DNA from: Escherichia coli
Lineage (GTDB): Bacteria > Pseudomonadota > Gammaproteobacteria > Enterobacterales > Enterobacteriaceae
Reading direction: 5' to 3' (one strand)
DNA length: 64,000 nt
NCBI RefSeq assembly: GCF_001677475.2
Contig: NZ_CP015229.1
Shown: in pieces, positions 2,192 through 54,458 of the stretch
How the letters are laid out: each line of letters opens with the position of its first letter
Position numbering within the stretch: position 1 is the stretch's first letter
Translations under genes and position numbers: made by a program
Notes under the pieces: generated by a model
Databases searched by the model: none
Told to the model about the DNA's origin: nothing
The model's input: the letters and a program-made list of their open reading frames with translations, nothing else

Positions 2192-3565
2192 GTGGATCAT
2201 TTGCCTATATTTTGCCAATTACGCGATCGCGACTGTCTGATTGTCGGCGGTGGTGATGTCGCGGAACGCAAAGCAAGGTTGCTGTTAGACGCGGGTGCTC
2301 GCTTAACGGTGAATGCATTAGCGTTTATTCCACAGTTCACCGCATGGGCAGATGCAGGCATGTTAACCCTCGTCGAAGGGCCATTTGATGAAAGCCTTCT
2401 CGACTCCTGCTGGCTGGCGATTGCTGCGACGGATGATGACGCGCTTAACCAGCGCGTCAGTGAAACCGCTGAAGCTCGTCGCATCTTCTGTAACGTGGTC
2501 GATGCGCCGAAAGCCGCCAGCTTTATTATGCCGTCAATTATTGACCGCTCACCGCTCATGGTAGCGGTCTCCTCTGGCGGCACCTCTCCGGTTCTGGCGC
2601 GCCTGTTGCGTGAAAAACTTGAATCACTGCTGCCGCTGCATCTGGGTCAGGTGGCGAAATATGCCGGGCAGTTACGTGGTCGGGTAAAACAGCAGTTCGC
2701 TACAATGGGTGAACGTCGCCGTTTCTGGGAAAAACTGTTCGTTAATGACCGCCTGGCGCAGTCGCTGGCAAACAACGATCAGAAAGCCATTACTGAAACG
2801 ACCGAACAGTTAATCAACGAACCGCTCGACCATCGCGGTGAAGTGGTGCTGGTTGGCGCAGGTCCGGGCGATGCCGGGCTGCTGACACTGAAGGGTCTGC
2901 AACAAATTCAGCAGGCAGATGTGGTGGTCTACGACCGTCTGGTTTCTGACGATATTATGAATCTGGTACGCCGCGATGCTGATCGCGTTTTCGTCGGCAA
3001 ACGCGCGGGATACCACTGCGTACCGCAGGAAGAGATTAACCAGATCCTGCTGCGGGAAGCGCAAAAAGGCAAACGCGTGGTGCGGCTGAAAGGCGGCGAT
3101 CCGTTTATTTTTGGCCGTGGTGGCGAAGAGCTGGAAACACTGTGCAACGCGGGTATTCCGTTCTCGGTGGTTCCGGGTATTACCGCAGCTTCTGGTTGCT
3201 CTGCCTATTCGGGTATTCCGCTCACGCATCGCGATTATGCTCAGAGCGTGCGCTTAATTACCGGACACTTAAAAACTGGTGGCGAGCTGGACTGGGAAAA
3301 CCTGGCGGCAGAAAAACAAACGCTGGTGTTCTATATGGGACTGAATCAGGCTGCGACTATTCAGCAAAAGCTGATTGAACACGGTATGCCTGGCGAAATG
3401 CCGGTGGCAATTGTCGAAAACGGAACAGCAGTCACGCAGCGCGTGATTGACGGTACGCTCACACAGCTGGGCGAACTGGCGCAGCAAATGAACAGTCCAT
3501 CGCTAATTATTATTGGTCGGGTTGTTGGCCTGCGCGATAAACTGAACTGGTTCTCCAACCATTAA
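2192..3565 (+). CDS. cysG: Siroheme synthase (uroporphyrinogen-III methyltransferase / precorrin-2 dehydrogenase / ferrochelatase)
   Basis: 457-aa ORF with GTG start ([10 protein letters not shown]...), Rossmann GGG motif near N-term; length matches CysG. Confidence 0.9.
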
Positions 3566-6712: not shown

Positions 6713-7543
6713 ATGAAAACAGGTATGTTTACCTGCGGCCACCAGCGGCTGCCTATTGAACACGCATTCCGTGATGCAAGCGAGCTGGGTTACGACGGCA
6801 TCGAAATTTGGGGCGGTCGCCCGCACGCGTTCGCGCCGGACTTAAAAGCGGGCGGCATCAAACAGATCAAGGCGCTGGCGCAGACGTATCAGATGCCGAT
6901 TATCGGTTATACGCCAGAAACCAACGGCTATCCGTATAACATGATGCTGGGCGATGAACATATGCGTCGCGAAAGCCTGGACATGATCAAGCTGGCGATG
7001 GATATGGCAAAAGAGATGAACGCCGGTTATACGCTGATTTCTGCGGCCCACGCGGGCTATCTCACGCCACCTAATGTTATCTGGGGACGGCTGGCAGAGA
7101 ACCTAAGCGAACTGTGTGAGTACGCGGAAAACATCGGCATGGATCTAATCCTCGAACCGTTAACACCGTATGAATCGAACGTCGTGTGTAATGCTAATGA
7201 TGTGCTTCATGCGCTGGCGCTGGTGCCTTCGCCGCGCCTGTTCAGCATGGTCGACATTTGCGCGCCGTATGTCCAGTCGGAACCGGTGATGAGTTATTTC
7301 GACAAACTGAGCGATAAATTGCGTCATTTGCATATTGTCGACAGCGACGGGGCCAGCGACACGCATTACATTCCCGGCGAAGGCAAGATGCCGCTGCGGG
7401 AGTTGATGCGCGATATTATTGATCGGGGCTACGACGGTTACTGCACGGTGGAACTGGTAACGATGTATATGAACGAACCCAGACTCTACGCTCGCCAGGC
7501 GCTGGAACGCTTTCGCGCGCTGCTGCCGGAGGATGCGAGATGA
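6713..7543 (+). CDS. frlC: Fructoselysine 3-epimerase (sugar-phosphate isomerase/epimerase TIM barrel)
   Basis: Track ORF 6626-7543; start trimmed to [11 protein letters not shown] (276 aa); SD-like aggag upstream. Confidence 0.85.
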
Positions 7544-8325
7544 AAAACCTGGCGACAATCGGCGATAACTGCGTCGATATCTACCCGCAACTGAATAAAG
7601 CGTTTTCTGGCGGTAATGCGGTGAACGTGGCGGTGTACTGCACTCGCTACGGCATACAACCCGGATGCATTACCTGGGTGGGTGACGATGACTACGGCAC
7701 AAAGCTGAAGCAGGATCTTGCCCGCATGGGCGTCGATATCAGCCATGTCCATACGAAACACGGCGTTACCGCACAAACTCAGGTGGAACTGCACGACAAC
7801 GATCGCGTTTTTGGCGACTACACCGAAGGCGTGATGGCCGACTTTGCCCTGAGCGAAGAGGATTACGCCTGGCTGGCGCAGTATGACATTGTGCACGCGG
7901 CAATCTGGGGACATGCGGAGGACGCATTCCCGCACCTGCACGCAGCGGGCAAACTTACCGCTTTCGACTTCTCCGACAAGTGGGACAGCCCGCTCTGGCA
8001 GACACTGGTGCCGCATCTCGATTTTGCCTTTGCCTCCGCGCCGCAAGAAGACGAAGCGTTACGTCTGAAGATGAAGGCGATTGTTGCCCGTGGCGCAGGC
8101 GTGGTGATTGTCACGCTGGGCGAAAACAGCAGCATTGCCTGGGATGGCGCGCAGTTCTGGCGTCAGGCTCCTGAACCGGTGACGGTTATCGACACCATGG
8201 GTGCCGGAGATTCGTTCATTGCCGGATTCCTTTGCGGCTGGTCTGCGGGGATGACATTACCGCAGGCGATGGCGCAGGGAACGGCGTGCGCGGCACAAAC
8301 TATTCAGTACCACGGTGCCTGGTAG
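7540..8325 (+). CDS. frlD: Fructoselysine 6-kinase (PfkB/ribokinase family)
   Basis: 261-aa ORF, ATG overlaps frlC stop (ATGA); GAGD motif near C-terminus typical of PfkB kinases. Confidence 0.85.
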
Positions 8326-8424: not shown

Positions 8425-9156
8425 ATGTCAGCTACGGACCGCTACTCTCATCAACTCCTCTACGCTACCGTCCGCCAGCGGCTGCTGGATGATATCGCGC
8501 AGGGGGTTTACCAGGCCGGGCAACAGATCCCTACCGAAAACGAGCTTTGTACGCAATATAACGTCAGCCGCATTACCATTCGCAAAGCCATCAGCGACTT
8601 AGTGGCAGACGGCGTACTGATCCGCTGGCAGGGCAAAGGCACCTTTGTACAAAGCCAGAAAGTTGAAAACGCCCTGCTTACTGTCAGTGGTTTTACCGAT
8701 TTTGGCGTCTCACAAGGCAAGGCGACGAAAGAGAAAGTGATCGAGCAGGAACGGGTCAGCGCCGCGCCGTTTTGCGAAAAGCTGAACATCCCCGGAAACA
8801 GCGAAGTGTTCCATCTCTGCCGGGTGATGTATCTCGATAAAGAGCCGCTGTTTATTGATAGTTCATGGATCCCGCTGTCGCGTTATCCTGACTTTGATGA
8901 GATTTACGCCGAAGGAAGCTCCACCTATCAGTTATTTCAGGAGCGTTTTGACACGCGAGTGGTCAGCGATAAAAAGACCATCGATATTTTTGCCGCCACC
9001 CGCCCGCAGGCAAAATGGCTGAAATGCGAACTGGGCGAACCGCTGTTTCGCATCAGCAAAATCGCCTTTGATCAGAATGACAAACCGGTGCACGTCTCCG
9101 AACTCTTCTGCCGCGCCAATCGCATCACCTTAACGATTGATAATAAAAGACATTAA
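8425..9156 (+). CDS. frlR: GntR-family transcriptional regulator of the frl operon
   Basis: Track ORF 8359-9156; start trimmed to MSATDRYSHQ (243 aa); N-terminal HTH with UTRA-like C-terminal domain. Confidence 0.85.
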   Translation: MSATDRYSHQLLYATVRQRLLDDIAQGVYQAGQQIPTENELCTQYNVSRITIRKAISDLVADGVLIRWQGKGTFVQSQKVENALLTVSGFTDFGVSQGKATKEKVIEQERVSAAPFCEKLNIPGNSEVFHLCRVMYLDKEPLFIDSSWIPLSRYPDFDEIYAEGSSTYQLFQERFDTRVVSDKKTIDIFAATRPQAKWLKCELGEPLFRISKIAFDQNDKPVHVSELFCRANRITLTIDNKRH

Positions 9157-9161
9157 CCGTA

Positions 9162-9206
9162 GGCCGGATAAGATGCGCCAGCATCGCATCCGGCGATGCT
9201 GGCGCG
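9162..9206. repeat. REP (repetitive extragenic palindromic) element between convergent frlR and yhfS
   Basis: ggccggataagatgcgccagcatcgcatccggcg palindromic unit characteristic of E. coli REP sequences. Confidence 0.6.
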
Positions 9207-9263
9207 TTGAGGGGACCGTCCGGCGCTGAATTTAGCTTGATTGCCGAACGGGGCTATCCAGCA

Positions 9264-10349
9264 TTAAATACTGGCAATACTCTCACGCAAAATCCGCAGC
9301 ACCGTCTCTTCACCGCTGCGATTTGGGTTAATACGAATCGCGTAATGTTCGAGTTGCGGATTCGCCTGGCGAAACGTTCCGGAAAGGCGATAAAAAAGCG
9401 GCGGGATCTCATATTTCGACTCTGCACCAACCGGGTAAGGCAAGGCACCGCGCTTTTGCGCCTCTTCCAGTACTCTGGCGGCAATCGGCTGATGAAACTC
9501 CACAATCAACACCTTCGACTGTGCATTGGCAATCACCGCGCTTTTCACGTCCGCCACTGCGCCACCGTTAAGTAAAGCCAGCAACCGTTCAGATACCCCC
9601 GCCTGCACCGCGTGCATCACTGGCGCAAACACCAGCCCACGCAAGACTTCCAACGCCTGCGCGCCCTGAATCTGGCTGCCGCCGGAGTAAAGCGTGGCGC
9701 GAATACGGTTGATAACATCAGCATCGCCTACCACCGCGCCAACACCCTCTGGCCCAAATAGCTTGAAGCAGGAAAAAGTCGAGACATTCGCCCCGCATTC
9801 GCAGCCGATTCGCGCTACCTTCATCACCGCATAGTTGTCATCGGTTAAGGCTGGAACACTTGCCGCGCGCAACGTTGCCAGCACATCTGCCAGCACATAG
9901 CTATCCTGCGGCTGCTGGCGCGTATGCTGCACCAGCGCGGCATCTGGTTGTTGCTCGTCGACAACCTGCTTCAGTGCCGACAGGTCATTGAAATCAGCAG
10001 TGATAAGCGTCAGCCCCATCTGCTCAATAATGACCTGAGTCGTCGGGTAAACCGGCGCGTCATGCACCAGAAGACGCTGCCCCGGTTTGAGCAAAACCGC
10101 CAACGCCGCACGAATCGCTCCAGTACCCGCGCCCTGCACCAGCGCCGCAGCCTGTGCGTGAAATGCATCAGCCAGCACCTGTTCCACACGCTGGGTAATG
10201 CGCGGTTGATTCAGTCCCGGCGTTAAGCCTAAATCACCGCCAGCAAGAAACTCGCTGCCGGGAAAATGGCGGCAAATCGTGTCCACCAGCGCAAACTGCT
10301 TTTGCTGCGCCTCAATAAGCGTCAGGCTTTGCAGAGGAAACGTCTTCAT
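9264..10349 (-). CDS. yhfS: Uncharacterised putative PLP-dependent enzyme
   Basis: 361-aa ORF; recognised as YhfS by sequence and position; first gene (3'-most) of the php/yhf cluster. Confidence 0.8.
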   Translation of the reverse strand: MKTFPLQSLTLIEAQQKQFALVDTICRHFPGSEFLAGGDLGLTPGLNQPRITQRVEQVLADAFHAQAAALVQGAGTGAIRAALAVLLKPGQRLLVHDAPVYPTTQVIIEQMGLTLITADFNDLSALKQVVDEQQPDAALVQHTRQQPQDSYVLADVLATLRAASVPALTDDNYAVMKVARIGCECGANVSTFSCFKLFGPEGVGAVVGDADVINRIRATLYSGGSQIQGAQALEVLRGLVFAPVMHAVQAGVSERLLALLNGGAVADVKSAVIANAQSKVLIVEFHQPIAARVLEEAQKRGALPYPVGAESKYEIPPLFYRLSGTFRQANPQLEHYAIRINPNRSGEETVLRILRESIASI

Positions 10350-10360
10350 AGGTGCCTTCC

Positions 10361-11665
10361 TTAAGCTGGAACAAACAGACCAAGCCAGTAAAGAACATTC
10401 AGCAGAATACCGGTGATCATTACTGCCACGACCGGTGCCGCCATTTTCTGTACCGGACGGCCCAGGGATTCGTTGAAGAAGTAAATGGCAACCGCGATAG
10501 AGAATCCGGTATAATCCGCCATTTTAATTGCTGCGAAAATCGAACCGACCAGCAGCGCCACTTCCATCAGCATATTCATGGCGTTACGGATGTTATCCGA
10601 CGCATTACGCACCGACGGATAGCGCCCCAGCCATTTGCCAATCGAACGAAGCAGTAAGACTTCCGCCGAAATAACCACTGCGCCTAATACCGCTGCAACC
10701 ATCGGATTCGGCGAGAGATAGCCCACCGCATAAACAAAGGTAAAGCCCGCAACTGCATACACGCCAGTGGCTAACGCCGTGGTGGCAATCAACGGCACAA
10801 ACCCCAGTCCGCGCATAAATTCTGCCAGAGCCGCCTGATTAATCAGCGTTTGCGATTGTTCCGGCGTTACGCCTGCGGAATATGCTTTCTCCAGTGTGAA
10901 GATCGAAACTTCGCTACCAGCAAAAATCTTCATGCTGGCAACGGCGGCAATCAATGCTCCCACGATGGCGATATACGGTAAGTTTTTGATAATCCGCGAC
11001 GTGCGTTCTTCAAACACCGAAAGCCCGCTGGCATCAATGTCATTTTCATCACGATGACGCAAGTCGTGAGTTATCGCGATCCCCAGCAGCATCACCATGC
11101 CAATAAAGATTTCGATGGATTCAGGGTTAAGATGTGGGAAATAGCGCACGACGACCACACGGGTCATCAGTACCACCACGGCGGCGATCAGACTTTGCTT
11201 CCAGCCAAACTGGTAGAAAATCGCCACCAGCGGGAACAGTGCAAAAGCTGAAACCACCGGCGAGCTTAATTCCCCCAGGCTACCTAATACATCCACCGGT
11301 AGCGCGGTCAGCAGCTGGTTTACCGGCAACAGGCAAGTAAGGATCTACACGCCCCAGATAGCGCCAAGACCAAACGCCATCAGGCTGTTTATCGCCAGTA
11401 CGCCGAGGATATCGGTAGGAAGAAAGAGTAACCATGCGTTGAGCAGCCCGGTTTTCAGGGTAAACGAGATCCCCACCGAGGCCACAAAACCAATGCTCAG
11501 ACCAAAAGCGATACTCCCCGCCTCGCGACGGTTCATATAGCCTTCAATCAGTTGCGGCAGGATCGGGCGGATACCGTCATGAAAAACGGCCGCCGAGCGA
11601 TGCGCCAGAAGCGATGTCATACCCGTCAGGCACGCCACCACGATAATCTGAATATACAGATCCAT
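10361..11665 (-). pseudogene. yhfT: Putative inner-membrane transporter YhfT interrupted by an in-frame TAG stop
   Basis: Two same-frame ORFs (11345-11665, 106 aa; 10361-11329, 322 aa) separated by TAG (rev-comp of cta at 11345-11347) plus 5 sense codons; 106+1+5+322 = 434 codons, the length I recall for intact YhfT. Confidence 0.6.
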
Positions 11666-11676
11666 AGTCGTGCCTT

Positions 11677-12030
11677 TTATTTCAGATGGTTAATCAGCAT
11701 CGGAATCGCGTGTTCGACATGCTCAACGGAAAGCCCAAACGCCACTTTCCCTTCGGCGATCATTTTGGCGATATGTTCGTCTTTCGCTTTAATGCCTGGT
11801 TTGGCAATGGTGCAACTTTTGTTATAGCCAATCACCGCGATGGCAATCGACAATGCCGCGCCCGCACCGGTATTACACGCGCCGATGTAGTAATCCAGTT
11901 GCCCGGATTTCACTTTCATTGCCGCTTCCATGTCGTTGTGAATGAAAACTTCAAAACGGCCAGGAGCCGTCGCTTCAATGGTTTTTTTAATCTGCTCACG
12001 CTGTAAGCCTGCAACACCAATCTTTTTCAT
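11677..12030 (-). CDS. yhfU: Uncharacterised protein YhfU (117 aa)
   Basis: Track ORF 11677-12069; start trimmed to MKKIGVAGL; tightly spaced with php and yhfT. Confidence 0.75.
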   Translation of the reverse strand: MKKIGVAGLQREQIKKTIEATAPGRFEVFIHNDMEAAMKVKSGQLDYYIGACNTGAGAALSIAIAVIGYNKSCTIAKPGIKAKDEHIAKMIAEGKVAFGLSVEHVEHAIPMLINHLK

Positions 12031-12040
12031 GAGTCTGTCC

Positions 12041-12919
12041 TTATTGGAAAAATTGAGAGGGAGTTTCACGTAACATCACATCCACATCGGCCTGACTGAA
12101 TCCTGACTGGCGCAATTGCGGAATAAAGGTGGTCAATAAATAGTCATAGCCATAACCACCGTTGGCTTTTAAATGGGAGCGGCGCGTAATATCCATCGAC
12201 AGCATGACGCGGTTCAGCAACCCACGGTCGCGTAGCGCATGAAGCATCGCAATACGCATTTCGTCCGGGTAGTAACTGTTCTTACCAATGGTGTCGAACT
12301 GCACATACGCGCCGAGATCGATCATCTTCAAAATGTTGTCGAGGTTGTCTTTCAGATCGCAGTGACCAACGGTGACGCGCGAAAGATCAACTCCGTGGGC
12401 TTGCAGTAGCGCCAGTTGTTCCAGACCCATGGTGCTAAAAGAGGTATGCGTGGAGATCGGACGTCCGGTCTGGTTATGTGCCAGCGCGGCGGCAATAAAC
12501 ACCTTCTCTTCCAGCGGCGTAATCTTCCCTTCGCTGGAGCCGATCTCCGCGATGATCCCGGCTTTCAGCTCCGTGCCATCGATACCCTGTTCAATTTCAT
12601 CGACCATCTCCTGCGCCAGTTCCTGCACGCTGCGGGTCGCCACATGTTGCGGGAAAAACGCGTCCTGGTAATAACCGGTACAGGCCACCACGTTGATCCC
12701 GGTTTCGCGCATTACATCGAGCATAAATTGCGCATTGCGCCCCATATAACGGTTGGTCATCTCAATCACATTACGCACGCCCTGGGCCATCAGGTCGTTC
12801 ATCTCCTGGCAAATGAACGCATACTGATCAAGGCGGCAGTCCACGTTGTTTTTAAAGCCTGAGAGATCAATATGCAGATGCTCATGGGCGAGGGTGTAAC
12901 CCGTCGGATCAAAACTCAT
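12041..12919 (-). CDS. php: Phosphotriesterase homology protein (amidohydrolase-superfamily binuclear metal hydrolase)
   Basis: Track ORF 12041-12961; start trimmed to [21 protein letters not shown] (292 aa); HxH metal-binding motif visible at N-terminus. Confidence 0.85.
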
Positions 12920-14142
12920 AGGGTGTCTCCTGCAAACCGGAGGGAGGAAAGAAAAGAGCAACCATTTTGTGGCGGTGGCGCACGGAAAAATTCACACACG
13001 GTAGCCCCCACATCAGAAAGCGTGGTGCGCACACCGAGTTGCGTGTGGACCAGCCCTTGCTGATAAACCAGCACCGGCACCATTTCGCGGGTATGGTGGC
13101 TGTGACCGATTGTCGGATCGTTACCATGATCCGCCATCACGACCAGGCAATCATCTGGCTGCATCACCTCAACAAGCCGGGCAAGGTTTCGGTCAACGAC
13201 CTGCAAACGTTCGGCATAACGTGCGACGTCTTCTGCGTGACCAGCGAGGTCGGTTTCCTGGATATTGGTGCAAATAAACGCCGTCGGATGCGTGTTAAAT
13301 TCGTCGAGGGTGATATCCATAATCCGCTGGCTATCCACCAGGTTTTGCCAGCTCACGCCATAAGGATTGCTGGCAATATCCGCCACTTTCCCCACCAGCA
13401 CGGTTGGTACGCCCACTTCATACAGTTTTTGTGGCACCTGCACTTTATCATCGACACCGTAGCCCATATGCACGACCTGGAAGCCGTTGTCATAAGCGCC
13501 TGAACGCGGCGCATTGATACCAATAAAGCGCCCTTCTTTGCTTTCTGCGGCATCGAGAATGCGTTGACTGTCGGGTAACAGGCCGCCAAATGTAATGACC
13601 CGACCGACCTGTACCTGCTCACGCACAATACGACCAATTTTGATTGCGTCGTCAAAAGAGATCACAGAGAGATTGGCGGTGATGTTATAGACCTGGCCTA
13701 AATCCGCCTCGAGATTATCGCCAATCGCAACCGCCTGATTGACCCACAGAAATTGCAGATCATCGCCACGGCGCTCCACCTGCCAGCCTGCGGAAACTAA
13801 TGCCTGCTCAACACGGTCAATCACATCGCGAAAGGGCATCCGCAGCGGCGGTAACGGGCGCGTGCCTAAAATTTCCTGATGCCCCATAAAGGTATCGCCA
13901 CCTTCATGTTGCAGCTCTGCCACGCCCCAGGTTGCGGAGTCTGACGGCTGCATATCTCCAGGCGCATAACCTAATGCGTTGATTAGCCCCATTTTCTCCA
14001 GCATTGGTAGCTGCAAATGCGGCAACTGGCTCAGGATGTGACCACAGGTATTTGCCCCGGCATCCTGCGGACGCACCAACGTGACATCTTTCATTGCCCC
14101 TACGCCAAAGCTATCAATCACTAACACCACAAATCGCGCCAT
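12916..14142 (-). CDS. yhfW: Uncharacterised phosphopentomutase-like metalloenzyme
   Basis: 408-aa ORF; stop overlaps php start; contains ADHGNDPT motif typical of phosphopentomutase/alkaline-phosphatase superfamily. Confidence 0.8.
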
Positions 14143-15305
14143 TACGCCTCCAGAGGGTTGCCGAGGCTGTCATAACGACCCACAATCTCTGCCGCGCCAC
14201 GCTGAATACCAGACACCAGCACCACATCGCTACGGGTGACAAAAATCTGCGTGCGAAAACAGAGCACCACTGCACTGCTTACCGGATGCTCACCTGCCAG
14301 CGGCAGGGTGTAGTCGATACCGCTGTCATCCACGGCTTTGAGATATGTTTCAGTCACGCTTTGATTCTCTGGCGTAAACACCAACGCATGTTGCGCATGA
14401 CCACGACGGTAATAACCGCCGCCGTAGCAGTAGCTGTCACCACGGAAGTGATGGGAAATTTCGCTCAGCCAAAGCATCGCGATACGTTCAGGCTGGTCTC
14501 CCTGCTGGTTTACCGGAATCGTCCCCGTCAGTGCATGACCGGGTTCGGCATGAGTCACACCGTATTCCGCCAGTAATGGCAGCGAAGTGCAGCTGGTCGC
14601 TGAAGGCGCGTTCAGTTGCTCAATCGCAATACCAGATTTCGCCAGTTGATCCCGTACCTGTATCAGCGTGTGAAGATTCGGTGTCGGCAAAACTTTCCCG
14701 GCAGCCTCATCCCAAAGCAGGCAAGGGAAATGGGTTAGTCCGGCTAAATGCAGCCCCGGCAGTTTCTTAATTTCAGCAACCACCTCGTGCAGCGAATGCT
14801 GTACAAAACCGCTCTCCTGCCCCGGATAAAGAAAATCATCGTCGCTATAAACTTTGAGCAGCACAGACTGGATTCGCCCGGCCTTCACCGCCGCCGCAGA
14901 AACTTCCCGCGCTTTGTCGAGAGTAAACACGGTGATGACGTCGGTGCCCTGTTCAACGGCGTCAGCAACCTGATGACAAGGGATTTGTACCAGATGCCCC
15001 TGATGCGCCACCGGCAAACCAGCGCGGCGCATGACTCGCGCCTCTTTGTAATCCACCGCCACAATGCCGCTGTAGCCCAATGCCAGCAGTTTTTCCGCCA
15101 GCCACGGATTACGACCGAATTGTTTGGTCATCAGATACAGTTCAATGCCGTAAAGCCGTGCCGTCTCAATCAGCCGCTTACCGTTTTCCAGTATCTGATC
15201 CACGTCGATCACCCAGCTGTCCGGGGCGATCTTGCCCTGCTGCCACAGGCTTAGTGCGGCGGAAATCAGCGCCGGGTTCTGGCGTTTCAATGCTTCTACA
15301 AACAT
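14142..15305 (-). CDS. yhfX: Uncharacterised alanine-racemase-like (PLP fold type III) protein
   Basis: 387-aa ORF; 1-nt overlap with yhfW start; recognised as YhfX. Confidence 0.8.
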
Positions 15306-15388
15306 CTTGTTGCCTCGTTTCTGTTCCTTGAGTTAAATATTCATTTTTTTGAATATTTAGGTTGTGCGACGTGGATTTGTCGGGAGCT

Positions 15389-15751
15389 TCAAACCTCTTC
15401 GTTAGCAGCCATCCATAATCCATAAAGGTTGGCCAGCAAATAGCCTTCTTCACACGGGTTAACTTCCAATGCGAATTCCTTCAACAACACCTGATGCAAT
15501 TGCACAACGGCTTGCCAGTGGCTGGATTGCGCCAGCTCTGCCAGCAACTCGTTATCCAGTGGCTCAATTTCTTCACCACGGCGACTGCGCATAAGTGCAC
15601 TCGCCATATGTGTCATCGCCATCGTTCCTTGCTCACTGCGCACCGGCAGATGGCACTCTTTTTCCAGTACGTTGACGACCTGCATCATGCCTTTGCAGAT
15701 GTCCTTATCGATGACCCCTGCATCGCAAAGCAGGTTGAGTCTGGTTTCCAT
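15389..15751 (-). CDS. yhfY: Uncharacterised protein YhfY (120 aa)
   Basis: Track ORF 15389-15871; start trimmed to METRLNLLCDAG. Confidence 0.7.
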   Translation of the reverse strand: METRLNLLCDAGVIDKDICKGMMQVVNVLEKECHLPVRSEQGTMAMTHMASALMRSRRGEEIEPLDNELLAELAQSSHWQAVVQLHQVLLKEFALEVNPCEEGYLLANLYGLWMAANEEV

Positions 15752-15767
15752 TTCAGATGCCTTTGGT

Positions 15768-16673
15768 TTAATAACTGGGTTCCTGTTCCCCACTGACCAC
15801 TCGTTGTTGATGGGCAAGCAGGGCCTGTTTATCAACAACTGCACGCAGCAATTGTTGCATTGGGTAATCATCGACTCGCGTCAGGACCACGGCTTCGGTG
15901 GCCTGTAAAAATCGCGGATCGTCTGTGAGCGGCGTCGCTTCTAATCCCAGCATGGTCAGTTCGTTTTCCGCCACCACGTTCCAGATCACCGCATCAACAT
16001 CGCCTTTAACAATGCGTTGTAAACTCTCGTGATAAGAGAGATCGACACGTTCCACATCACTATCGCCAAAAAAGACATCGGTCATGATTTTCTGATCCGC
16101 CGAACGGTTATCCAGCCCCACGCGCTTCACGTTTGCGGACTCGCCTTTACGGCATATCAACTGGTGTTCGCCAACGTAGGTGTGCGGCCCCAATTCCAGC
16201 GCGAGGCATAACCCTTTTTGCGTGAGATAACTTTCCGCCGCCAGTCGGGAAACCACCGCCATGTCATACACGCCGTTAAGTAAACACTCCACGCGAATAT
16301 CCGCGCCGCGCATATGCGCATAGTAAAAAGGAATGCCATCAAACTGGGCTTTCAATCCGCTCGCTAAACCTTCGTACAAGCGGGTATAGGGCAAAGGCAT
16401 CGCACATACCACGTTGTTGATATCCACATGGCTCAGCAATGCTTTGTTATCCATCTCGACCAGATAACTGCCATTGCGCCCACGGCGTTCAATCCGTATC
16501 GCTCCGCTTGATTCCAGTGTTTTCAACGCTGCCTGCGTCAGGCCAACGGATGAACGGCATTCAGTTGCCAGCTCATCTATGGTTTTCAACCTATTACCGC
16601 ATTTTTCACCCAACAAATAACGGGCCAGCGTCGTGATAACGACGCCTTCTTTTTTGATAAACGTTCGACGCAT
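15768..16673 (-). CDS. yhfZ: Uncharacterised putative regulator YhfZ (N-terminal HTH-like region)
   Basis: 301-aa ORF; first gene of the yhfZ-to-yhfS co-directional cluster; AT-rich promoter region with palindrome upstream. Confidence 0.75.
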   Translation of the reverse strand: MRRTFIKKEGVVITTLARYLLGEKCGNRLKTIDELATECRSSVGLTQAALKTLESSGAIRIERRGRNGSYLVEMDNKALLSHVDINNVVCAMPLPYTRLYEGLASGLKAQFDGIPFYYAHMRGADIRVECLLNGVYDMAVVSRLAAESYLTQKGLCLALELGPHTYVGEHQLICRKGESANVKRVGLDNRSADQKIMTDVFFGDSDVERVDLSYHESLQRIVKGDVDAVIWNVVAENELTMLGLEATPLTDDPRFLQATEAVVLTRVDDYPMQQLLRAVVDKQALLAHQQRVVSGEQEPSY

Positions 16674-16702
16674 AATATATTTTCAATAAAATGAATGTTT
16701 AT

Positions 16703-16722
16703 ATCTTCATTAAAATGAAGAT
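16703..16722. promoter_or_regulatory. Near-perfect 20-bp palindrome in the yhfZ upstream region (candidate operator)
   Basis: atcttcatt-aa-aatgaagat, about 30 bp upstream of the yhfZ start codon. Confidence 0.4.
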
Positions 16723-16791
16723 AAGTGGCAACTGTGAGATGTGGAAACGGCGAGGCGCTTCACATTTTTTCGGATTATTGCAAATGAGGAT

Positions 16792-16817
16792 AAAAAAACC
16801 GGGTTTCCCCGGTTTTT
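16792..16817. terminator. Bidirectional intrinsic terminator downstream of trpS
   Basis: aaaaaaa-ccggg-tttc-cccgg-ttttt: stem-loop flanked by A-run and T-run, 15 bp past the trpS stop. Confidence 0.65.
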
Positions 16818-16832
16818 GGCATTAATGTTAAA

Positions 16833-17837
16833 TTACGGCTTCGCCACAAAACCAATCGCTTCGTACACCGCTTTTAGCGTACGGGAAGCGTGTGCGCTGG
16901 CTTTTTCCGCGCCATCTTTCATCACCTGTTGCAGGAAGGCTTCGTCATTGCGGAAACGGTGATAGCGTTCCTGCAATTCAGTCAGCATACCGGAAACGGC
17001 ATCAGCCACTTCGCCTTTCAGATGACCATACATCTTGCCTTCGAACTGTTTTTCCAGTTCCGGGATGCTCTGGCCCGTTACCGCAGAAAGGATATCCAGC
17101 AGGTTGGAAACGCCCGCTTTGTTCTGCACATCGTAGCGAACTACCGGCGGCTCGTCGGAGTCAGTGACCGCGCGTTTGATTTTCTTCACTACCGATTTCG
17201 GATCTTCCAGCAGGCCGATAACGTTATTGCGGTTATCGTCAGACTTGGACATCTTCTTGGTCGGCTCCAGCAGCGACATTACGCGCGCGCCAGATTTCGG
17301 AATAAACGGCTCCGGCACCTTAAAGATCTCACCATACAGCGCGTTGAAACGCTGAGCGATATCGCGGCTCAGTTCCAGGTGCTGTTTCTGGTCTTCACCC
17401 ACAGGTACCAGATTAGTTTGATACAGCAGGATGTCCGCAGCCATCAGCACCGGATAGTCAAACAGACCAGCGTTGATGTTCTCGGCATAACGCGCAGATT
17501 TATCTTTAAACTGCGTCATGCGGCTCAGTTCGCCGAAGTAGGTATAGCAGTTCAGTGCCCAGCCTAACTGCGCATGTTCCGGTACGTGGGACTGAACAAA
17601 AATGGTGCTTTTCTCAGGATCGATACCACAAGCCAGATACAAGGCCAGCGTATCCAGCGTCGCTTTACGCAGCTTCTGTGCATCCTGGCGCACGGTGATC
17701 GCGTGTTGGTCAACGATACAGTAAATGCAATGGTAGTCATCCTGCATGTTTACCCACTGACGCAGCGCACCCATGTAGTTACCAATGGTCAATTCACCTG
17801 AGGGCTGTGCGCCACTAAAAACGATGGGCTTAGTCAT
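16833..17837 (-). CDS. trpS: Tryptophan--tRNA ligase
   Basis: 334-aa ORF starting [21 protein letters not shown]; class I aaRS with KMSKS motif (KMSKS present). Confidence 0.95.
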
Positions 17838-24902: not shown

Positions 24903-25218
24903 TTGTATCTCCTTGCCGTTGCCACAACCAGTGTGGCGGTTCGCAGTTTGTCCCGGTTCCCAGCGTTAGTGCGTCTGGCGTCAGCTGTAAGATCGTCCAG
25001 CCGTTTTCCAGCACATCGTTTTGCTGCACCCGTCGCCATTTTTTTTGCCCATCTTTTATTACACCGATGATGCGCTCGCCTCGCCCTACCATCCCCTGAT
25101 AGCGCCACTGGCTAAGTTCGCTAATCCGGCATAGATCTTCCGGCGGTTTAAAAGGGTCACGCATACCGGTTAAAAGGCACAATGCAATACCTGCCAACAA
25201 CCAGCGTTTAACCCTCAT
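24814..25218 (-). CDS. hofP: PilP-like DNA-utilisation protein
   Basis: Track ORF 24814-25257; start trimmed to MRVKRWLLAGIALCLL (134 aa); overlaps hofQ. Confidence 0.7.
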   Translation of the reverse strand: MRVKRWLLAGIALCLLTGMRDPFKPPEDLCRISELSQWRYQGMVGRGERIIGVIKDGQKKWRRVQQNDVLENGWTILQLTPDALTLGTGTNCEPPHWLWQRQGDTNEAMDSRTTVDADTRRTGGKAAKSDADGG

Positions 25219-25648
25219 GCGGCGTCTCCAGTTGTAGCGTGAACAAAAGGTCATCACCTTCCACGCTTAACGAAAAACGGCTCACTCTGACGTTGCGCTC
25301 TGCCAGCCGTGTAAATGCCAACGGCACTGCTTCCCACAGCGTTTTCAACGCCAACTCGCCTCCCTGCGCGGATGGATGCCAGTAAACCAGTTGTGCGTCG
25401 GGCAACTGAAAATCCAGTGGCGAAAAGAGCAGCGTTTTTTCCTCGCTGAAGGGGGTGGAGTCAACCAGGCGATACAGTGCGGCCCACTGCTGGTGATGAC
25501 TTGCCCGTAGTCGAATTAATGCGTCGCTCTCTTCCTGGTGTGTCGATGACAGAAAAATGAGCGTAACTAACATCAGCAACCAGACTGCCCAGCAAAGCTG
25601 GCGGAGGCGGGGTGATGTGGCGAACCACCAGTCAAAGAGCATGTCCAT
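25208..25648 (-). CDS. hofO: PilO-like DNA-utilisation protein
   Basis: 146-aa ORF; overlaps hofP and hofN. Confidence 0.7.
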   Translation of the reverse strand: MDMLFDWWFATSPRLRQLCWAVWLLMLVTLIFLSSTHQEESDALIRLRASHHQQWAALYRLVDSTPFSEEKTLLFSPLDFQLPDAQLVYWHPSAQGGELALKTLWEAVPLAFTRLAERNVRVSRFSLSVEGDDLLFTLQLETPHEG

Positions 25649-26171
25649 CGCTAACCTTCCTTGTTAACTGATACTCAAATTGCCAGCGTCCCTGCGCATC
25701 CTGCTGCGTGGCTCCCCTCTGATTGAGATGAAAAGATGCATCCTGGCGGAGTGACGTTTCTAGTGCGTTTAACGCGGTAATGCTTGTTGTCAGCCCCTTG
25801 ATCTCCAGCGTTCCCTGCTGCCAGCTTATCGTTGTCAGCCAGGCATGTTCGGGTAAAAGCGCCGCCAGTGCTTCCAGCGCAGATTGCCAGTCGCGGGTAA
25901 ATTCTCGCTGGCGCTGCCGTTGCAAACGCTGTTCGCGTAACTGCTGTTGCTCCAGCAAACGTGGTTTCGTTATCTGTAAGCTGTGGGCGAGTTGTTGTTC
26001 CGCCTGAAGCAAAACGGTGTTTACGCGTGCTTCGGCGTTGCTTGTCAGACGCAGTATTAGCGTTATCCCGACGGCCAGCAGCAGAGGTGCAACGAACATC
26101 AGCAACCAGAAACGAAGAAAAGCGGTCCGGCGTTGCTGTCGCCAGGGCAAAAAATTAATTGGCGGGTTCAT
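25632..26171 (-). CDS. hofN: PilN-like DNA-utilisation protein
   Basis: 179-aa ORF with N-terminal TM helix. Confidence 0.75.
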   Translation of the reverse strand: MNPPINFLPWRQQRRTAFLRFWLLMFVAPLLLAVGITLILRLTSNAEARVNTVLLQAEQQLAHSLQITKPRLLEQQQLREQRLQRQRQREFTRDWQSALEALAALLPEHAWLTTISWQQGTLEIKGLTTSITALNALETSLRQDASFHLNQRGATQQDAQGRWQFEYQLTRKVSDGHAL

Positions 26172-34978: not shown

Positions 34979-36703
34979 TCACTTGCTTAAGTTTATTTCC
35001 AGCGTTTCACCATCTACCGCCAGATCGCGCCACGCTTTCGGCCTCGTCCCCAGCTTTCCATCCTTCGCAGCTGTGAGTAATTTTTCTTTCGTTATTTTGC
35101 GCGGAAGTAAACTCATATCAAGCGCGTCCCATTCTTTTCTGGCTGAGTCAAAGCCATAGACAATGACTCTGTCATCATTAAAAGCAAACAGGATCCGCTC
35201 CGCCTGACCATCACTATTCAGATCTTGCTCGACCAGTACGCAGGCGTCTTTTTCAATACAGGTCATCACGTTATAGCGATCCTGGATTAAGGCCGACCAG
35301 AATGTCGCATCCGGTTTACCAGAGCCTGGGGCAATTAACACATTTTCGGCTAATACTTTTTCCGATACCTGTTCCTGAAGATGTTGCTCTCCATCTAACG
35401 CCATCAGCAGATCCCGCGCGCGTTTCGGGTCTTTCATATACTCGGCATCGCTTTTCAGCGACTCAAGCGCCGCACGTCCATAGCGACCGCTCTGTTCGAG
35501 CATATAGAGACTTACCTGGTCTGGCGTGTTTTTGCCGCTCTGATAACGTGCCATATGACTGTTCACGCTAATACGCATACTGTCCAGCACCGGCGAATTA
35601 AGAAGCACCAGTATCACCAACACCAATAACGAAACCGCAAGGTTCACTTTGCCCTGAAGAACAAGGGGGTTTTGCCCTTTACGCCAGACGATACTGACAA
35701 AATACCCCAGCGACCATACCAGTAACACCAGCACCGCCAACGCGCCCTGCAAGCGGTCGACAGTCCAGCCGTACTGAGCGACCCGCAGCCATAACGCCCA
35801 GGCGGCGACGAACACATACAGCGGAGCAGCCAGCAGAGCGGTTTTAATCAGGCAACGCAACGGCCCTGTCCAGGGAAGTGACGCTTTTTGCGGATCGCGG
35901 ACAATAGCCATTAAGATCAATTGCAAAAATGCCAGCGTCAACAGCAACCCAGCGGCGGAGATGTGGCGAGAAATCGCGCTCAGGCCCGTAAACGGCAGGG
36001 TGATAATAAACATCAGGGTTAGCAATGATACTAACGGCAGCAACCCCGTGGCGATTAGCGTGAACAACTTTTGAATAGAGTCGATTAAACGTGACTGTGT
36101 ACGCGCGAGGATCACCGCCAGTGCGGTAACCAGACCTAATGTAAGATACATAAACCAGTCGGTTGCAAAAAAGAGCGTATTGAAAAACGTGATGCCAACA
36201 AGTTTAAACAACTCGCCCCACAGTAAAAGTACCAGCCATGTCAGGCCATTGGCGAGAAAAATCACCAGTAATATAAGTACGTTATGCCATACTGACTGGT
36301 AAAAATAGCGATAGCGGCTACTGTCATTGCGGATGCGAAGGCTTTGTTGTATCCACGGTAGCAACAACATTGCCATCAGCAGCAGATAGCAACCAAAATC
36401 CCAAAGCGCCTTTTCTGCTCTCCAGGGGTTCATGCCATCAGTTTGCCACTTCAGCCAACCGCTCATCCCTGTCGTGGCAATAAACACCAGCACCAGCCAT
36501 CCCCAAAGGCGCTTCTGTTTAAAGGAGATCACGGAGAAGAGTAAAACGGATGAAAACGCGACGGTCGCAGGCACGCCATAAACAATCCAACTGAGATTTT
36601 TTCCGGCAAGCCAGGCGATCAGCAAGTAGCAAACCAGCCCCTGAAGTAATCCGGTAGCAATCATCCCCCAGCGTGTTGCTGGTGAAAGTTCAACGTTATC
36701 CAT
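34979..36703 (-). CDS. yhgE: Putative inner-membrane protein YhgE
   Basis: 574-aa ORF with many TM helices. Confidence 0.75.
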
Positions 36704-47414: not shown

Positions 47415-48308
47415 ATGAGCAAAAAGCAGAGTTCCACCCCACACGATGCGCTGTTCAAACTCTTTTTACGCCAACCGGAGACGGCACGCGATTTTCTTGC
47501 GTTTCATTTACCGGCACCCATTCACGCGCTCTGTGATATGAAAACCCTCAAGCTGGAGTCGAGCAGCTTTATTGATGACGATCTGCGTGAAAGCTATTCC
47601 GACGTGCTGTGGTCGGTGAAAACGGAACAAGGACCAGGATATATCTATTGTCTGATTGAACATCAAAGCACCTCAAACAAACTGATCGCATTTCGCATGA
47701 TGCGTTACGCCATTGCCGCAATGCAAAATCACCTTGATGCCGGATACAAAACGTTGCCGATGGTGGTGCCATTGTTGTTTTACCACGGTATTGAAAGCCC
47801 CTATCCCTATTCGCTGTGTTGGCTGGATTGTTTTGCCGATCCCAACCTGGCAAGGCAGCTTTATGCCTCTGCATTTCCGCTGATTGATGTCACCGTCATG
47901 CCTGATGATGAAATCATGCAGCACCGACGCATGGCGCTGCTGGAGTTAATTCAAAAACATATCCGTCAACGCGATCTGATGGGGCTGGTAGAGCAAATGG
48001 CCTGCTTATTAAGTAGTGGATACGCTAATGACAGACAAATCAAAGGGCTGTTTAATTACATCTTGCAAACCGGCGATGCGGTACGTTTTAACGATTTTAT
48101 CGACGGCGTTGCCGAACGTTCACCGAAACACAAGGAGAGTTTAATGACTATTGCGGAAAGATTGCGGCAGGAAGGGTTTCAGAAAGGTATACGTACCAAC
48201 GCCCTAAATATTGCCAAAACCATGCTGGATGCCGGAGTCTCTCTTGAGGACGTTCTGCGATTTACCAGCCTGACGGTTGAAGACCTTGCTGAAATAAATC
48301 ATCAATAA
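47415..48308 (+). CDS. rpnA: Recombination-promoting nuclease RpnA (YhgA-like, PD-(D/E)XK transposase_31 family)
   Basis: 297-aa ORF recognised as YhgA/RpnA; exact start uncertain by a few codons. Confidence 0.8.
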
Positions 48309-52361: not shown

Positions 52362-52376
52362 ATCAACCGCACCCTA

Positions 52377-54458
52377 CTACTTCTTCGCTGCCGCTCTGCG
52401 CCGTCTGTCCAAATCCTTCAGCAACTTGTTCACGCCATCATCGGCAAACATCGCCTCAAGCGTTGCGGAGAGCTTGCGCCGCCAGTTTTTATACTGGTAA
52501 CTGGTGCCGGGAATATTTACCGGTTCGGCCATATCCAGCCAGTCTTCCGGCTGTAGTCCTAACAGAGCACTGTTACTGTCGGCAATGTAGCGCTGCAAAC
52601 CACGGTTCAGCGTCGGCGTCATCGACATCAACGATGCCTTATGCCCGGCACGTTTTGGCAGACAACCATATTTATGCAGTGCATCCAGCAGCCCTTGCTT
52701 CGCCAGTTCGCGATCCTGATACAGACCGCGCAGTACCACTTCATCCGGATACAGGCCCAGAGTTTTGCCCAGCGTTAGATCCCCGCTCTCCCAGTAACCG
52801 CGTAGCGTAGGCAGGTCATGTGTCGCCGCAACCGCCATCGACTGCTCCGGATACGCTTTCGGTGCACGGAACGTCTTCTCGTGGTCGTTTTCGAAATAGA
52901 GCACTTTGTAGGAGTACACACCGCTGCTGCGCAGCTTACCGACAATCTCTACCGGTACGGTACCGAGATCTTCACCAATCACCATGCAGCGATGACGTTT
53001 ACTTTCGAGTGCCAGAATCGAGAGCAGATCATCCACCGGATAGTGTACATACGCGCCCTGATCTGCCGTCTCGCCATACGGTATCCACCACAAACGCAGC
53101 ATCGACATCACATGGTCAATTCGTAATGCGCCGCAGTTTTGCATATTGGCACGCAACAGCTCGATAAACGGTTCATAGGCACGCGCGGTGATGATATGCG
53201 GGTCCATTGGCGGCAATCCCCAGTTCTGCCCCAACGGGCCGAGGATATCCGGCGGTGCGCCAACCGACGCTTTCAGGCAATACAACTCCCGGTCGCACCA
53301 GGTTTCTGCTCCACCCTCTGCTACACCAACGGCCAGGTCACGATACAAGCCAATCGGCATTTCATAGCCCTGGCTTATCTCCCAGCAGTCGGCAAACTGG
53401 CTGTAAGCCAGCCACTGCAACCAGAGATAAAAATCGACGTCATCACGATGTTCTTCGCAGAACTGGCGCACTTCTGGTGAATCCACGTTCTGATACATCT
53501 CTGGCCATGCAGGCCAGCCCCAGCGCATTTCGTCCTCTTTCACTTGCTGGGCATGTAGTGCGTCAAACGCCGCCTGCCAGAACAGGCTGTCGCCTTGCTC
53601 TGCAACAAACTGGCGAAACGCGGCCATCTGTTCATCATCACGTTGCGCGAAACCTTTCCACGCCATTCGTAATGCTGTCATTTTTAGGGCGGTAACCGTG
53701 GAGTAATCGACCCAGTCGGCATCCCGCGCCTGTTGCAGCGTCTGTTGCGTGGTCGGCAACTTCCACCAGGCCTGAGCCTCTTCGCTAAGATGGAAATCTT
53801 CGACGGCGTTAACGTCGATATAAATCACATTCAGCCAACGGCGAGAAGACGGGCTGTATGGGCTGGCACTCTCCGGATTTGCCGGATAGAGCGCATGAAT
53901 CGGGTTCAGGCCGATGAACGACCCGCCACGTTTTGCCACATCCACCAGCATCGCTTTGAGATCGCCAAAATCCCCAATACCCCAGTTTTTTTCCGATCGC
54001 AGCGTATAAAGCTGAACGCAGGCACCCCACAGCTTTTGTTTATTCAGCAACGCCTGCGGTTCGTAACAGCGTTTCGGGGCGACAATCACCCGGCAATGCG
54101 CGCGCTGGTCGTCCTGGGTGAGTGTCAGCGTGTGATAACCTTCCGGCAGCTTCGTCGGTAGATTGAACGCTTTGCCCCCCGTTACATGGCCTTTGTACTG
54201 TGTTCCTTCTTCGGTGGTCAGCAGCCAGCTATATTCGCCGCTGCCCTCCACCACCATCGGCATTTTTTTGCCGCTGGTATAAACCATGACATTCGGGACT
54301 GGCGTTACCGCCACTTTCGTGGCGGTACGTTGATGCATCGCGTCAAGCAAACGCCGTTTGGTTTCGGCGCTAATCGACTGCGGTTTACCGTGGGCATTGA
54401 TGTAATTGGGGCTGATCCCCGCCGCCAGCGCGGCATTATCCAGACGTTTGCTTTCCAT
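52377..54458 (-). CDS. malQ: 4-alpha-glucanotransferase (amylomaltase)
   Basis: 693-aa ORF beginning MESKRLDNAALAAGI; 9-bp spacer from malP stop. Confidence 0.95.
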   Translation of the reverse strand: MESKRLDNAALAAGISPNYINAHGKPQSISAETKRRLLDAMHQRTATKVAVTPVPNVMVYTSGKKMPMVVEGSGEYSWLLTTEEGTQYKGHVTGGKAFNLPTKLPEGYHTLTLTQDDQRAHCRVIVAPKRCYEPQALLNKQKLWGACVQLYTLRSEKNWGIGDFGDLKAMLVDVAKRGGSFIGLNPIHALYPANPESASPYSPSSRRWLNVIYIDVNAVEDFHLSEEAQAWWKLPTTQQTLQQARDADWVDYSTVTALKMTALRMAWKGFAQRDDEQMAAFRQFVAEQGDSLFWQAAFDALHAQQVKEDEMRWGWPAWPEMYQNVDSPEVRQFCEEHRDDVDFYLWLQWLAYSQFADCWEISQGYEMPIGLYRDLAVGVAEGGAETWCDRELYCLKASVGAPPDILGPLGQNWGLPPMDPHIITARAYEPFIELLRANMQNCGALRIDHVMSMLRLWWIPYGETADQGAYVHYPVDDLLSILALESKRHRCMVIGEDLGTVPVEIVGKLRSSGVYSYKVLYFENDHEKTFRAPKAYPEQSMAVAATHDLPTLRGYWESGDLTLGKTLGLYPDEVVLRGLYQDRELAKQGLLDALHKYGCLPKRAGHKASLMSMTPTLNRGLQRYIADSNSALLGLQPEDWLDMAEPVNIPGTSYQYKNWRRKLSATLEAMFADDGVNKLLKDLDRRRRAAAKK

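Follow-up and report, generated by a model that had tools for sequence, protein, structure and literature searches.

The yhfT gene carried by this stretch of Escherichia coli DNA (64,000 nucleotides, hereafter the window) is very probably a young pseudogene, produced by a single T>A change that converted codon 107 from TTG to TAG on a short terminal branch of its lineage. In the course of events that we propose, this transversion replaced a leucine codon by an amber stop in an uncommon E. coli lineage, translation would end after 106 of the 434 residues, and about three quarters of a polytopic inner-membrane protein would be lost. The frame of 322 codons that follows would then be leftover coding sequence, devoid of translation signals of its own.

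At the sequence level, the ORF list places two open reading frames in the same frame of the minus strand, at 11345..11665 (106 aa, ATG start) and 10361..11329 (322 aa, TTG start). A previous reading, made from the sequence only, had noted that a single TAG and five codons separate them, as both the sequence and the ORF list bear out (the five codons encode ILTCL), and that 106 + 1 + 5 + 322 gives 434, which is indeed the length of K-12 YhfT. On the minus strand, the context of codon 107 reads ATC TGG GGC GTG TAG ATC CTT ACT TGC CTG TTG CCG GTA. In K-12 (DH5alpha, NZ_CP025520.1), yhfT is one coding sequence of 1305 nt, that is, 434 aa plus the stop, lying between yhfU and yhfS, and the segment 11665..10361 of the window aligns with it end to end (1-1305), without gaps and at 97.85% identity. 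The two genes differ in 28 codons: besides 25 synonymous changes there are two missense ones (G384D and L397F) and the nonsense change at codon 107, leaving 431 of the 434 codons equal at the amino-acid level. With the TAG as the sole break in a gap-free alignment, the proposal of one nonsense point mutation in an otherwise whole gene is upheld; a reference yhfT with the same TAG, or of a different length, would have spoken against it, but the reference gene is free of the TAG and has 434 aa. The features of the locus are the following:

10361..11665, minus strand: yhfT pseudogene, a full-length and gap-free counterpart of the K-12 gene (K-12 alignment).
11345..11347, minus strand: premature amber TAG at codon 107, with the variant base at 11346; the ancestral codon is TTG (Leu) (sequence and comparators).
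11348..11665, minus strand: N-terminal piece of 106 codons, still translatable, about one quarter of the protein (ORF list; same product in independent assemblies).
10361..11329, minus strand: frame of 322 codons from TTG codon 113, taken as a remnant and not as a gene (no Shine-Dalgarno pairing).
10514..10516, minus strand: codon 384, GAT (Asp) where K-12 has GGT (Gly), a missense change (K-12 comparison).
10475..10477, minus strand: codon 397, TTC (Phe) in place of Leu, the second missense change, older than the stop (K-12 and the intact allele of GCA_019138615.1).

Thus, as in any nonsense pseudogene, the stop interrupts a frame that is full-length and collinear in K-12 and in two assemblies of the same lineage. 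No repeat tract is present at the site, and the lesion is a base substitution within GTGTTGATC; a phase-variable contingency locus was therefore ruled out, as the lesion lies outside any simple-sequence repeat.

As to the nature of the mutation, TGG (Trp) had been supposed to be the ancestral codon and a transition the change behind the stop. Both suppositions were wrong: K-12, the nearest relatives and all comparators have TTG (Leu) at codon 107, and TTG>TAG amounts, on the coding strand, to a T>A transversion. The distribution of the two alleles was evaluated by megablast with a 49-mer carrying the variant base at position 28, so that each 28-nt seed word spans it. In this analysis, which may miss a TAG closely flanked, on both sides, by additional polymorphisms of its haplotype, the TAG 49-mer was found in none of the 5,426 complete RefSeq E. 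coli genomes, and the TTG 49-mer, with a 49-nt context that is otherwise identical, was found in 3,642 of them. Moreover, leucine occupies position 107 in 23 of 24 diverse members of the YhfT family. The presence of TTG in K-12, in two intact alleles of the window's own lineage (L016 and L017, described below) and in 3,642 complete genomes, together with leucine in nearly all family members, establishes TAG as the derived state. Regarding the two missense positions, the family column (n = 24) at codon 384 consists of 22 Gly, one Ser and one Ala, and that at codon 397 of 21 Leu, two Met and one Ile. The Asp384 allele occurs in none of the 5,426 complete genomes and is private to the lineage of the window.

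The premature stop was also found in other genomes. The exact 106-aa product is present in public assemblies, on 34 contigs, and direct reading of contigs with this product identified three true TAG carriers (L005, L006 and L007). Assembly GCA_018683435.1 carries the TAG in sequence with 0 mismatches to the window in 6,321 nt (L006, which has 10 further similar places) and with 1 mismatch in 12,164 nt (L015), and sequencing run ERR10434976 (L007) carries it with 1 mismatch in 5,501 nt; the remaining carrier, GCA_035825615.1 (L005), is considered further below. Taking the 34 contigs for 34 TAG carriers proved only partly valid, as the K-12-like contigs L009-L014 merely end at GTGTT and L008 is a phage Mu junction. 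Likewise, the 35 contigs with the K-12-type 322-aa fragment (P0106) were dismissed as a second TAG lineage, since most of them have a one-T deletion at nt 327; two of the contigs carrying P0106 are scaffolds with N-gaps. That the source genome contains a sequencing or assembly error, and that its yhfT is really intact, would be in line with a difference that amounts to one base and is shared by 0 complete RefSeq genomes. However, the same base is present in GCA_018683435.1, in ERR10434976, in more than 10 further similar places and in GCA_035825615.1, and the TAG co-segregates with two other derived SNPs. As these genomes were assembled independently, a sequencing error is excluded, and we regard an error in the source genome as vanishingly improbable.

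We then considered the age of the mutation, using the exact YhfX protein of the window as a handle on its lineage. In the 24 contigs with this protein that were read, yhfT is split in 21 and intact, with 434 aa, in 3. One intact allele, from GCA_019138615.1 (L017), lies in sequence with only 3 differences from the window in 11,610 positions (11346, 15332 and 16518); it encodes 434 aa, has TTG at codon 107, and already carries D384 and F397. Another, from GCA_018428245.1 (L016), has the same bases as L017 at these three positions, in a sequence that shows a recombinant block over yhfU-yhfS and 41 mismatches in total. At 11346, 15332 and 16518 alike, K-12, L016 and L017 agree with one another, and the window and L015 hold the derived base. 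The two positions outside yhfT are:

15332: an intergenic SNP, derived and tied to the TAG sub-clade, located 27 nt ahead of the start of yhfX; C in the window and L015, T in L016, L017 and K-12 (coding strand).
16518: a synonymous SNP in codon 52 of yhfZ, ACG>ACA, also derived and tied to the TAG sub-clade (same comparators).

Because the comparators are ancestral at all three sites, the TAG arose on a short terminal branch of the lineage, and since the intact allele of L017 has G384D as well as L397F, these missense changes preceded the stop. The TAG marks a sub-clade of the lineage and is not private to one strain. In addition, an intact YhfT of the same haplotype (EHS3286108.1, the accession next to that of the lineage's YhfS, EHS3286109.1) is found on 24 contigs; with the intact protein on so many contigs and the split gene common, both alleles are well sampled.

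A GenBank genome of 5,498,453 bp contains the exact YhfS, YhfW, YhfX and RtcA proteins of the window. There, yhfS is ANO91296 and yhfW is ANO91299, which leaves two accession numbers for yhfT, yhfU and php; this would fit an annotation of yhfT as a pseudogene in that genome. Over the 25 kb of core genes (17001-42000), no complete RefSeq E. coli genome (n = 5,426) is above 98.4% to the window, and the best of the same 5,426 reaches 96.3% over the yhf cluster (9000-17000) and 97.9% over yhfT. The lineage of the window is thus represented here by draft assemblies and one GenBank chromosome.

The age of the substitutions also determines what they can tell about selection. Relaxed selection after the stop was discarded as a readout, as the two missense changes predate it, and the 25:2 ratio of synonymous to missense changes reflects the history of yhfT before inactivation, being uninformative on post-stop selection. 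Constraint on yhfT may have been weak before the stop appeared, in view of the lineage-private G384D at a near-invariant glycine, and judging from this replacement the protein may perhaps have been impaired already.

The TTG>TAG change has a second background, GCA_035825615.1 (L005/L023), which shares about 96% identity with the window over the cluster and is devoid of the frl operon, with yhfS adjoining yhfL and cysG. This sequence is a mosaic: it is window-like only over yhfU and the 5' half of yhfT, a block of approximately 1 kb with 1-2 differences per 250 nt (5 in all), and from yhfT position 111 to position 405 it shows no difference from the window. Consequently, a single recent origin of the TAG requires that a recombination tract of no more than about 293 bp was transferred, or that the same mutation happened a second time. 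In this one assembly with the second background, the TAG could stem from a short recombination tract, from a shared allele of greater age, or from the same mutation arising independently. As an alternative, homologous recombination may spread a TAG allele of greater age from lineage to lineage, intact alleles such as L017 then being secondary repairs. The TAG block of GCA_035825615.1, with its 5 differences over about 1 kb, predates the divergence of the window from L017, and the intact L016 does carry a recombinant block over yhfU-yhfS (41 mismatches), as this alternative would have it. Nevertheless, in the intact L017 the flanks of the site are unchanged out to 4 kb, and its two other differences are ancestral states common to L016 and K-12, as expected if the TAG branch is the derived one; moreover, the second background is a single assembly. 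We therefore consider an old, mobile TAG allele unlikely, and retain a recent origin on the terminal branch.

Regarding translation, truncation after residue 106 of 434, with no signal for a restart, suggests that YhfT function has been lost. The TTG at codon 113 has no Shine-Dalgarno pairing (duplex of +0.4 kcal/mol, as to -3.2 to -9.3 for most real starts of the cluster). An internal GTG at codon 137 does have a Shine-Dalgarno-like sequence upstream (-8.4 kcal/mol), in a gene in which scores of -6 or below occur at about 5% of random positions. Hence, the 322-codon frame is best read as a remnant that seems to be open only since the mutation is so young. A naturally split, two-gene YhfT was rejected, as codon 113 lacks a ribosome-binding site and relatives do not share the split; a programmed read-through or recoding site was rejected as well, as the in-frame stop is absent from the 5,426 complete genomes and from L016 and L017.

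It could still be argued that yhfT works, with the TAG (followed by A) being read through, by a suppressor tRNA encoded elsewhere in the genome or by low-level natural leakiness, or with two separately made pieces assembling after translation has restarted at codon 113 (TTG) or codon 137 (GTG). The downstream frame is wholly open, the signal upstream of codon 137 could serve such a restart, and split membrane proteins can assemble from fragments. However, the open frame is fully explained by its youth, the window being 3 SNPs in 11.6 kb away from an intact allele. Codon 113 has no pairing, signals of -6 or below arise at about 5% of random positions in yhfT, the split is conserved in no relative, and a restart at codon 137 would remove 30 residues, including invariant positions. 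Furthermore, suppressors are rare in natural isolates, and no tRNA gene lies within the 64-kb window. Altogether, we hold it very unlikely that yhfT remains functional by either route.

The consequences of the stop may extend to the next gene downstream:

9264..10349, minus strand: yhfS, separated from yhfT by an 11-nt spacer, an intact 361-aa ORF that is gap-free relative to K-12 (K-12 alignment).

The Shine-Dalgarno pairing of yhfS itself is strong (-8.3). On the minus strand, no promoter-like or terminator-like site was detected between yhfT and yhfS, and the promoter and terminator scan of the cluster yielded nothing above shuffled expectation, except for promoter-like sites upstream of yhfZ. 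With the TAG in place, approximately 980 nt of mRNA ahead of yhfS would become untranslated, which may lower yhfS expression through Rho-dependent polarity.

The remaining genes of the cluster are undamaged:

11677..16673, minus strand: yhfU, php, yhfW, yhfX, yhfY and yhfZ, all full-length and gap-free relative to K-12 (K-12 alignment).

The order and spacing of yhfU, upstream of yhfT, and of yhfS, downstream of it, are the same as in K-12. That the other seven genes of yhfZYXW-php-yhfUTS are intact can be understood from the age of the stop, which has left almost no time for further decay. The same holds beyond the cluster, and the view of a local lesion among intact genes was corroborated: 54 other K-12 genes were compared and all are collinear in the window, none with an internal stop or a frameshift, while the partial nirB at its left edge is open.

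Two genes whose length or start had been singled out beforehand behave as anticipated. The malQ gene is one codon short, at 693 as to 694 aa, because its last sense codon (codon 694; 3' end at 52374-52379), AAG in K-12, is TAG in the window. As for rpnA (47415-48308), it is 93% identical to K-12, with 12 gap columns, and despite its in-frame indels it is open at 297 aa (292 aa in K-12); apart from the terminal codon of malQ, it is the only gene of the window with a change of length. Across the window, the differences from K-12 are overwhelmingly synonymous in most genes. The exceptions include yhgE (34979-36703), which has 38 synonymous and 23 nonsynonymous differences and a diverged 3' end at the same length, and hofO and hofN (25208-26171), in which the nonsynonymous share is unusually high (4 synonymous and 13 nonsynonymous in hofO, 7 and 10 in hofN). 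Within the cluster, yhfX (93.4%), yhfS (94.1%) and yhfW (95.4%) are among the genes of the window most diverged from K-12.

Concerning the protein itself, K-12 YhfT (b3377) matches Pfam family PF10797 ('YhfT, protein of unknown function') over positions 1-430 of 430, with E = 1.2e-180, and both fragments in the window have PF10797 in the precomputed matches of identical products. The window gene is an ortholog within this family, in the same eight-gene context, its protein being cut at residue 106 and having D384 and F397. YhfT is strongly hydrophobic (GRAVY 0.93), with many hydrophobic segments, and its homologs are found mainly in Enterobacterales, with some in Vibrio; the only functional names among them are 'putative permease' and 'integral membrane protein'. 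No NCBIfam model covers YhfT, the PDB holds no sequence relative or recognisable solved fold, and no similarity in sequence or fold was seen to solved members of the MFS, APC/LeuT, ion-transporter/TRAP, PTS EIIC or ABC permease groups. The description of yhfT as the only transporter gene of the cluster stood in part: YhfT is the only polytopic membrane protein of the eight, but it has no link to a known transporter family, and the label 'transporter' is unproven.

Other lesions and outright absence indicate how readily yhfT is lost. In 357 of the 5,426 complete genomes there is no match to yhfT at all. A one-T deletion in codon 98 (TTT, nt 294) exactly reproduces another public 106-aa product (P0003); it (L018-L021) is found in 7 of the 5,426 complete genomes, from human and cattle isolates, and on many draft contigs, and in strain 2014C-3061 (NZ_CP027548.1, C6992_RS25375) the RefSeq annotation calls the gene 'frameshifted'. 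Another one-T deletion, at nt 327 (codon 109, CCTTAC>CCTAC), is carried by L022 (SRR30600995) and 20 similar places, that is, at least 21, on a K-12-like haplotype beside a locus without the frl operon, and occurs in none of the 5,426 complete RefSeq genomes. Finally, in L008 (ERR5260610, locus 3319-3344), which has a K-12-like background, codon 106 is followed by 21 nt that match, base for base, the extreme right end of phage Mu (36697-36717 of 36,717), a probable Mu insertion. Five other runs gave K-12-like contigs (L009-L013) that all end at the same base as this junction, which suggests either a recurring Mu-insertion strain or an assembly-graph branch. Sporadic decay is also seen elsewhere in the cluster: in strain EC96 (L002, NZ_CP060748.1, locus 7317-8242), which is otherwise K-12-like, yhfS carries the annotation of a frameshifted pseudogene, its length being reduced by about 160 bp.

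Overall, yhfT is evidently dispensable across E. coli. As yhfT is dispensable and the lineage already carried the non-conservative G384D, its loss in the window's lineage was most likely neutral or nearly so. Whether positive selection instead favors yhfT loss in certain lineages of E. coli, as it might if YhfT admits a toxic compound, a colicin or a phage, has to be weighed against this. There are at least four independent lesions (T320A at codon 107, the nt 294 and nt 327 deletions and the Mu junction), an identical TAG in two backgrounds, and a TAG sub-clade to which most of the lineage's sampled contigs belong (21 of the 24 read). However, the look-ups return only products truncated near codon 107, so that the clustering of lesions there is an ascertainment effect, and public-health surveillance sampling can swell a clade. 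Moreover, the lesions are infrequent (T320A, nt 294 and nt 327 in 0, 7 and 0 of the 5,426 complete genomes, respectively), neighbors decay too, as yhfS does in EC96, and whole-gene absence in 357 genomes fits plain dispensability. Positive selection for YhfT loss thus appears quite unlikely to us, and a reading of yhfT as a recurrent target of selected loss in some lineages, with the TAG twice, the frameshifts and Mu as convergent events, distinctly so. Neutral or nearly neutral loss remains the preferred explanation.

The event is an ordinary one, in a dispensable and uncharacterised gene. It resembles other nonsense pseudogenes of E. coli and Shigella, such as those that NCBI PGAP labels 'internal stop', in having a single derived stop, an otherwise undamaged sequence and intact neighbors, and does not differ from them in substance; it is unusual only in that a near-isogenic intact relative exists (3 SNPs in 11.6 kb) and in that the same change is found in one unrelated background. 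The pseudogene of 2014C-3061 is the closest parallel within yhfT, the same gene being hit nine codons upstream and also yielding a 106-aa product, owing to a coincidental overlapping TGA; there, however, one base has been lost from a TTT run, the haplotype is K-12-like and of another lineage, and 7 complete genomes carry the lesion. Programmed read-through likewise involves an in-frame stop followed by an open frame, but the yhfT stop is unconserved, arose within the last few SNPs and has no evident recoding signal.

Single-gene nonsense pseudogenes are routine in E. coli, and the finding carries little weight in itself. In practical terms, annotation pipelines without pseudogene flagging report two spurious 'YhfT family' proteins, of 106 and 322 aa, which are already in public collections. 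If selected loss were true after all, YhfT would be costly in some niche, and the TTG and TAG isolates, being near-isogenic, would offer a natural way into what the orphan php/yhf cluster does. Irrespective of the cause of the loss, near-isogenic TTG/TAG pairs, 3 SNPs apart in 11.6 kb, could reveal a phenotype of the uncharacterised yhfZYXW-php-yhfUTS cluster.
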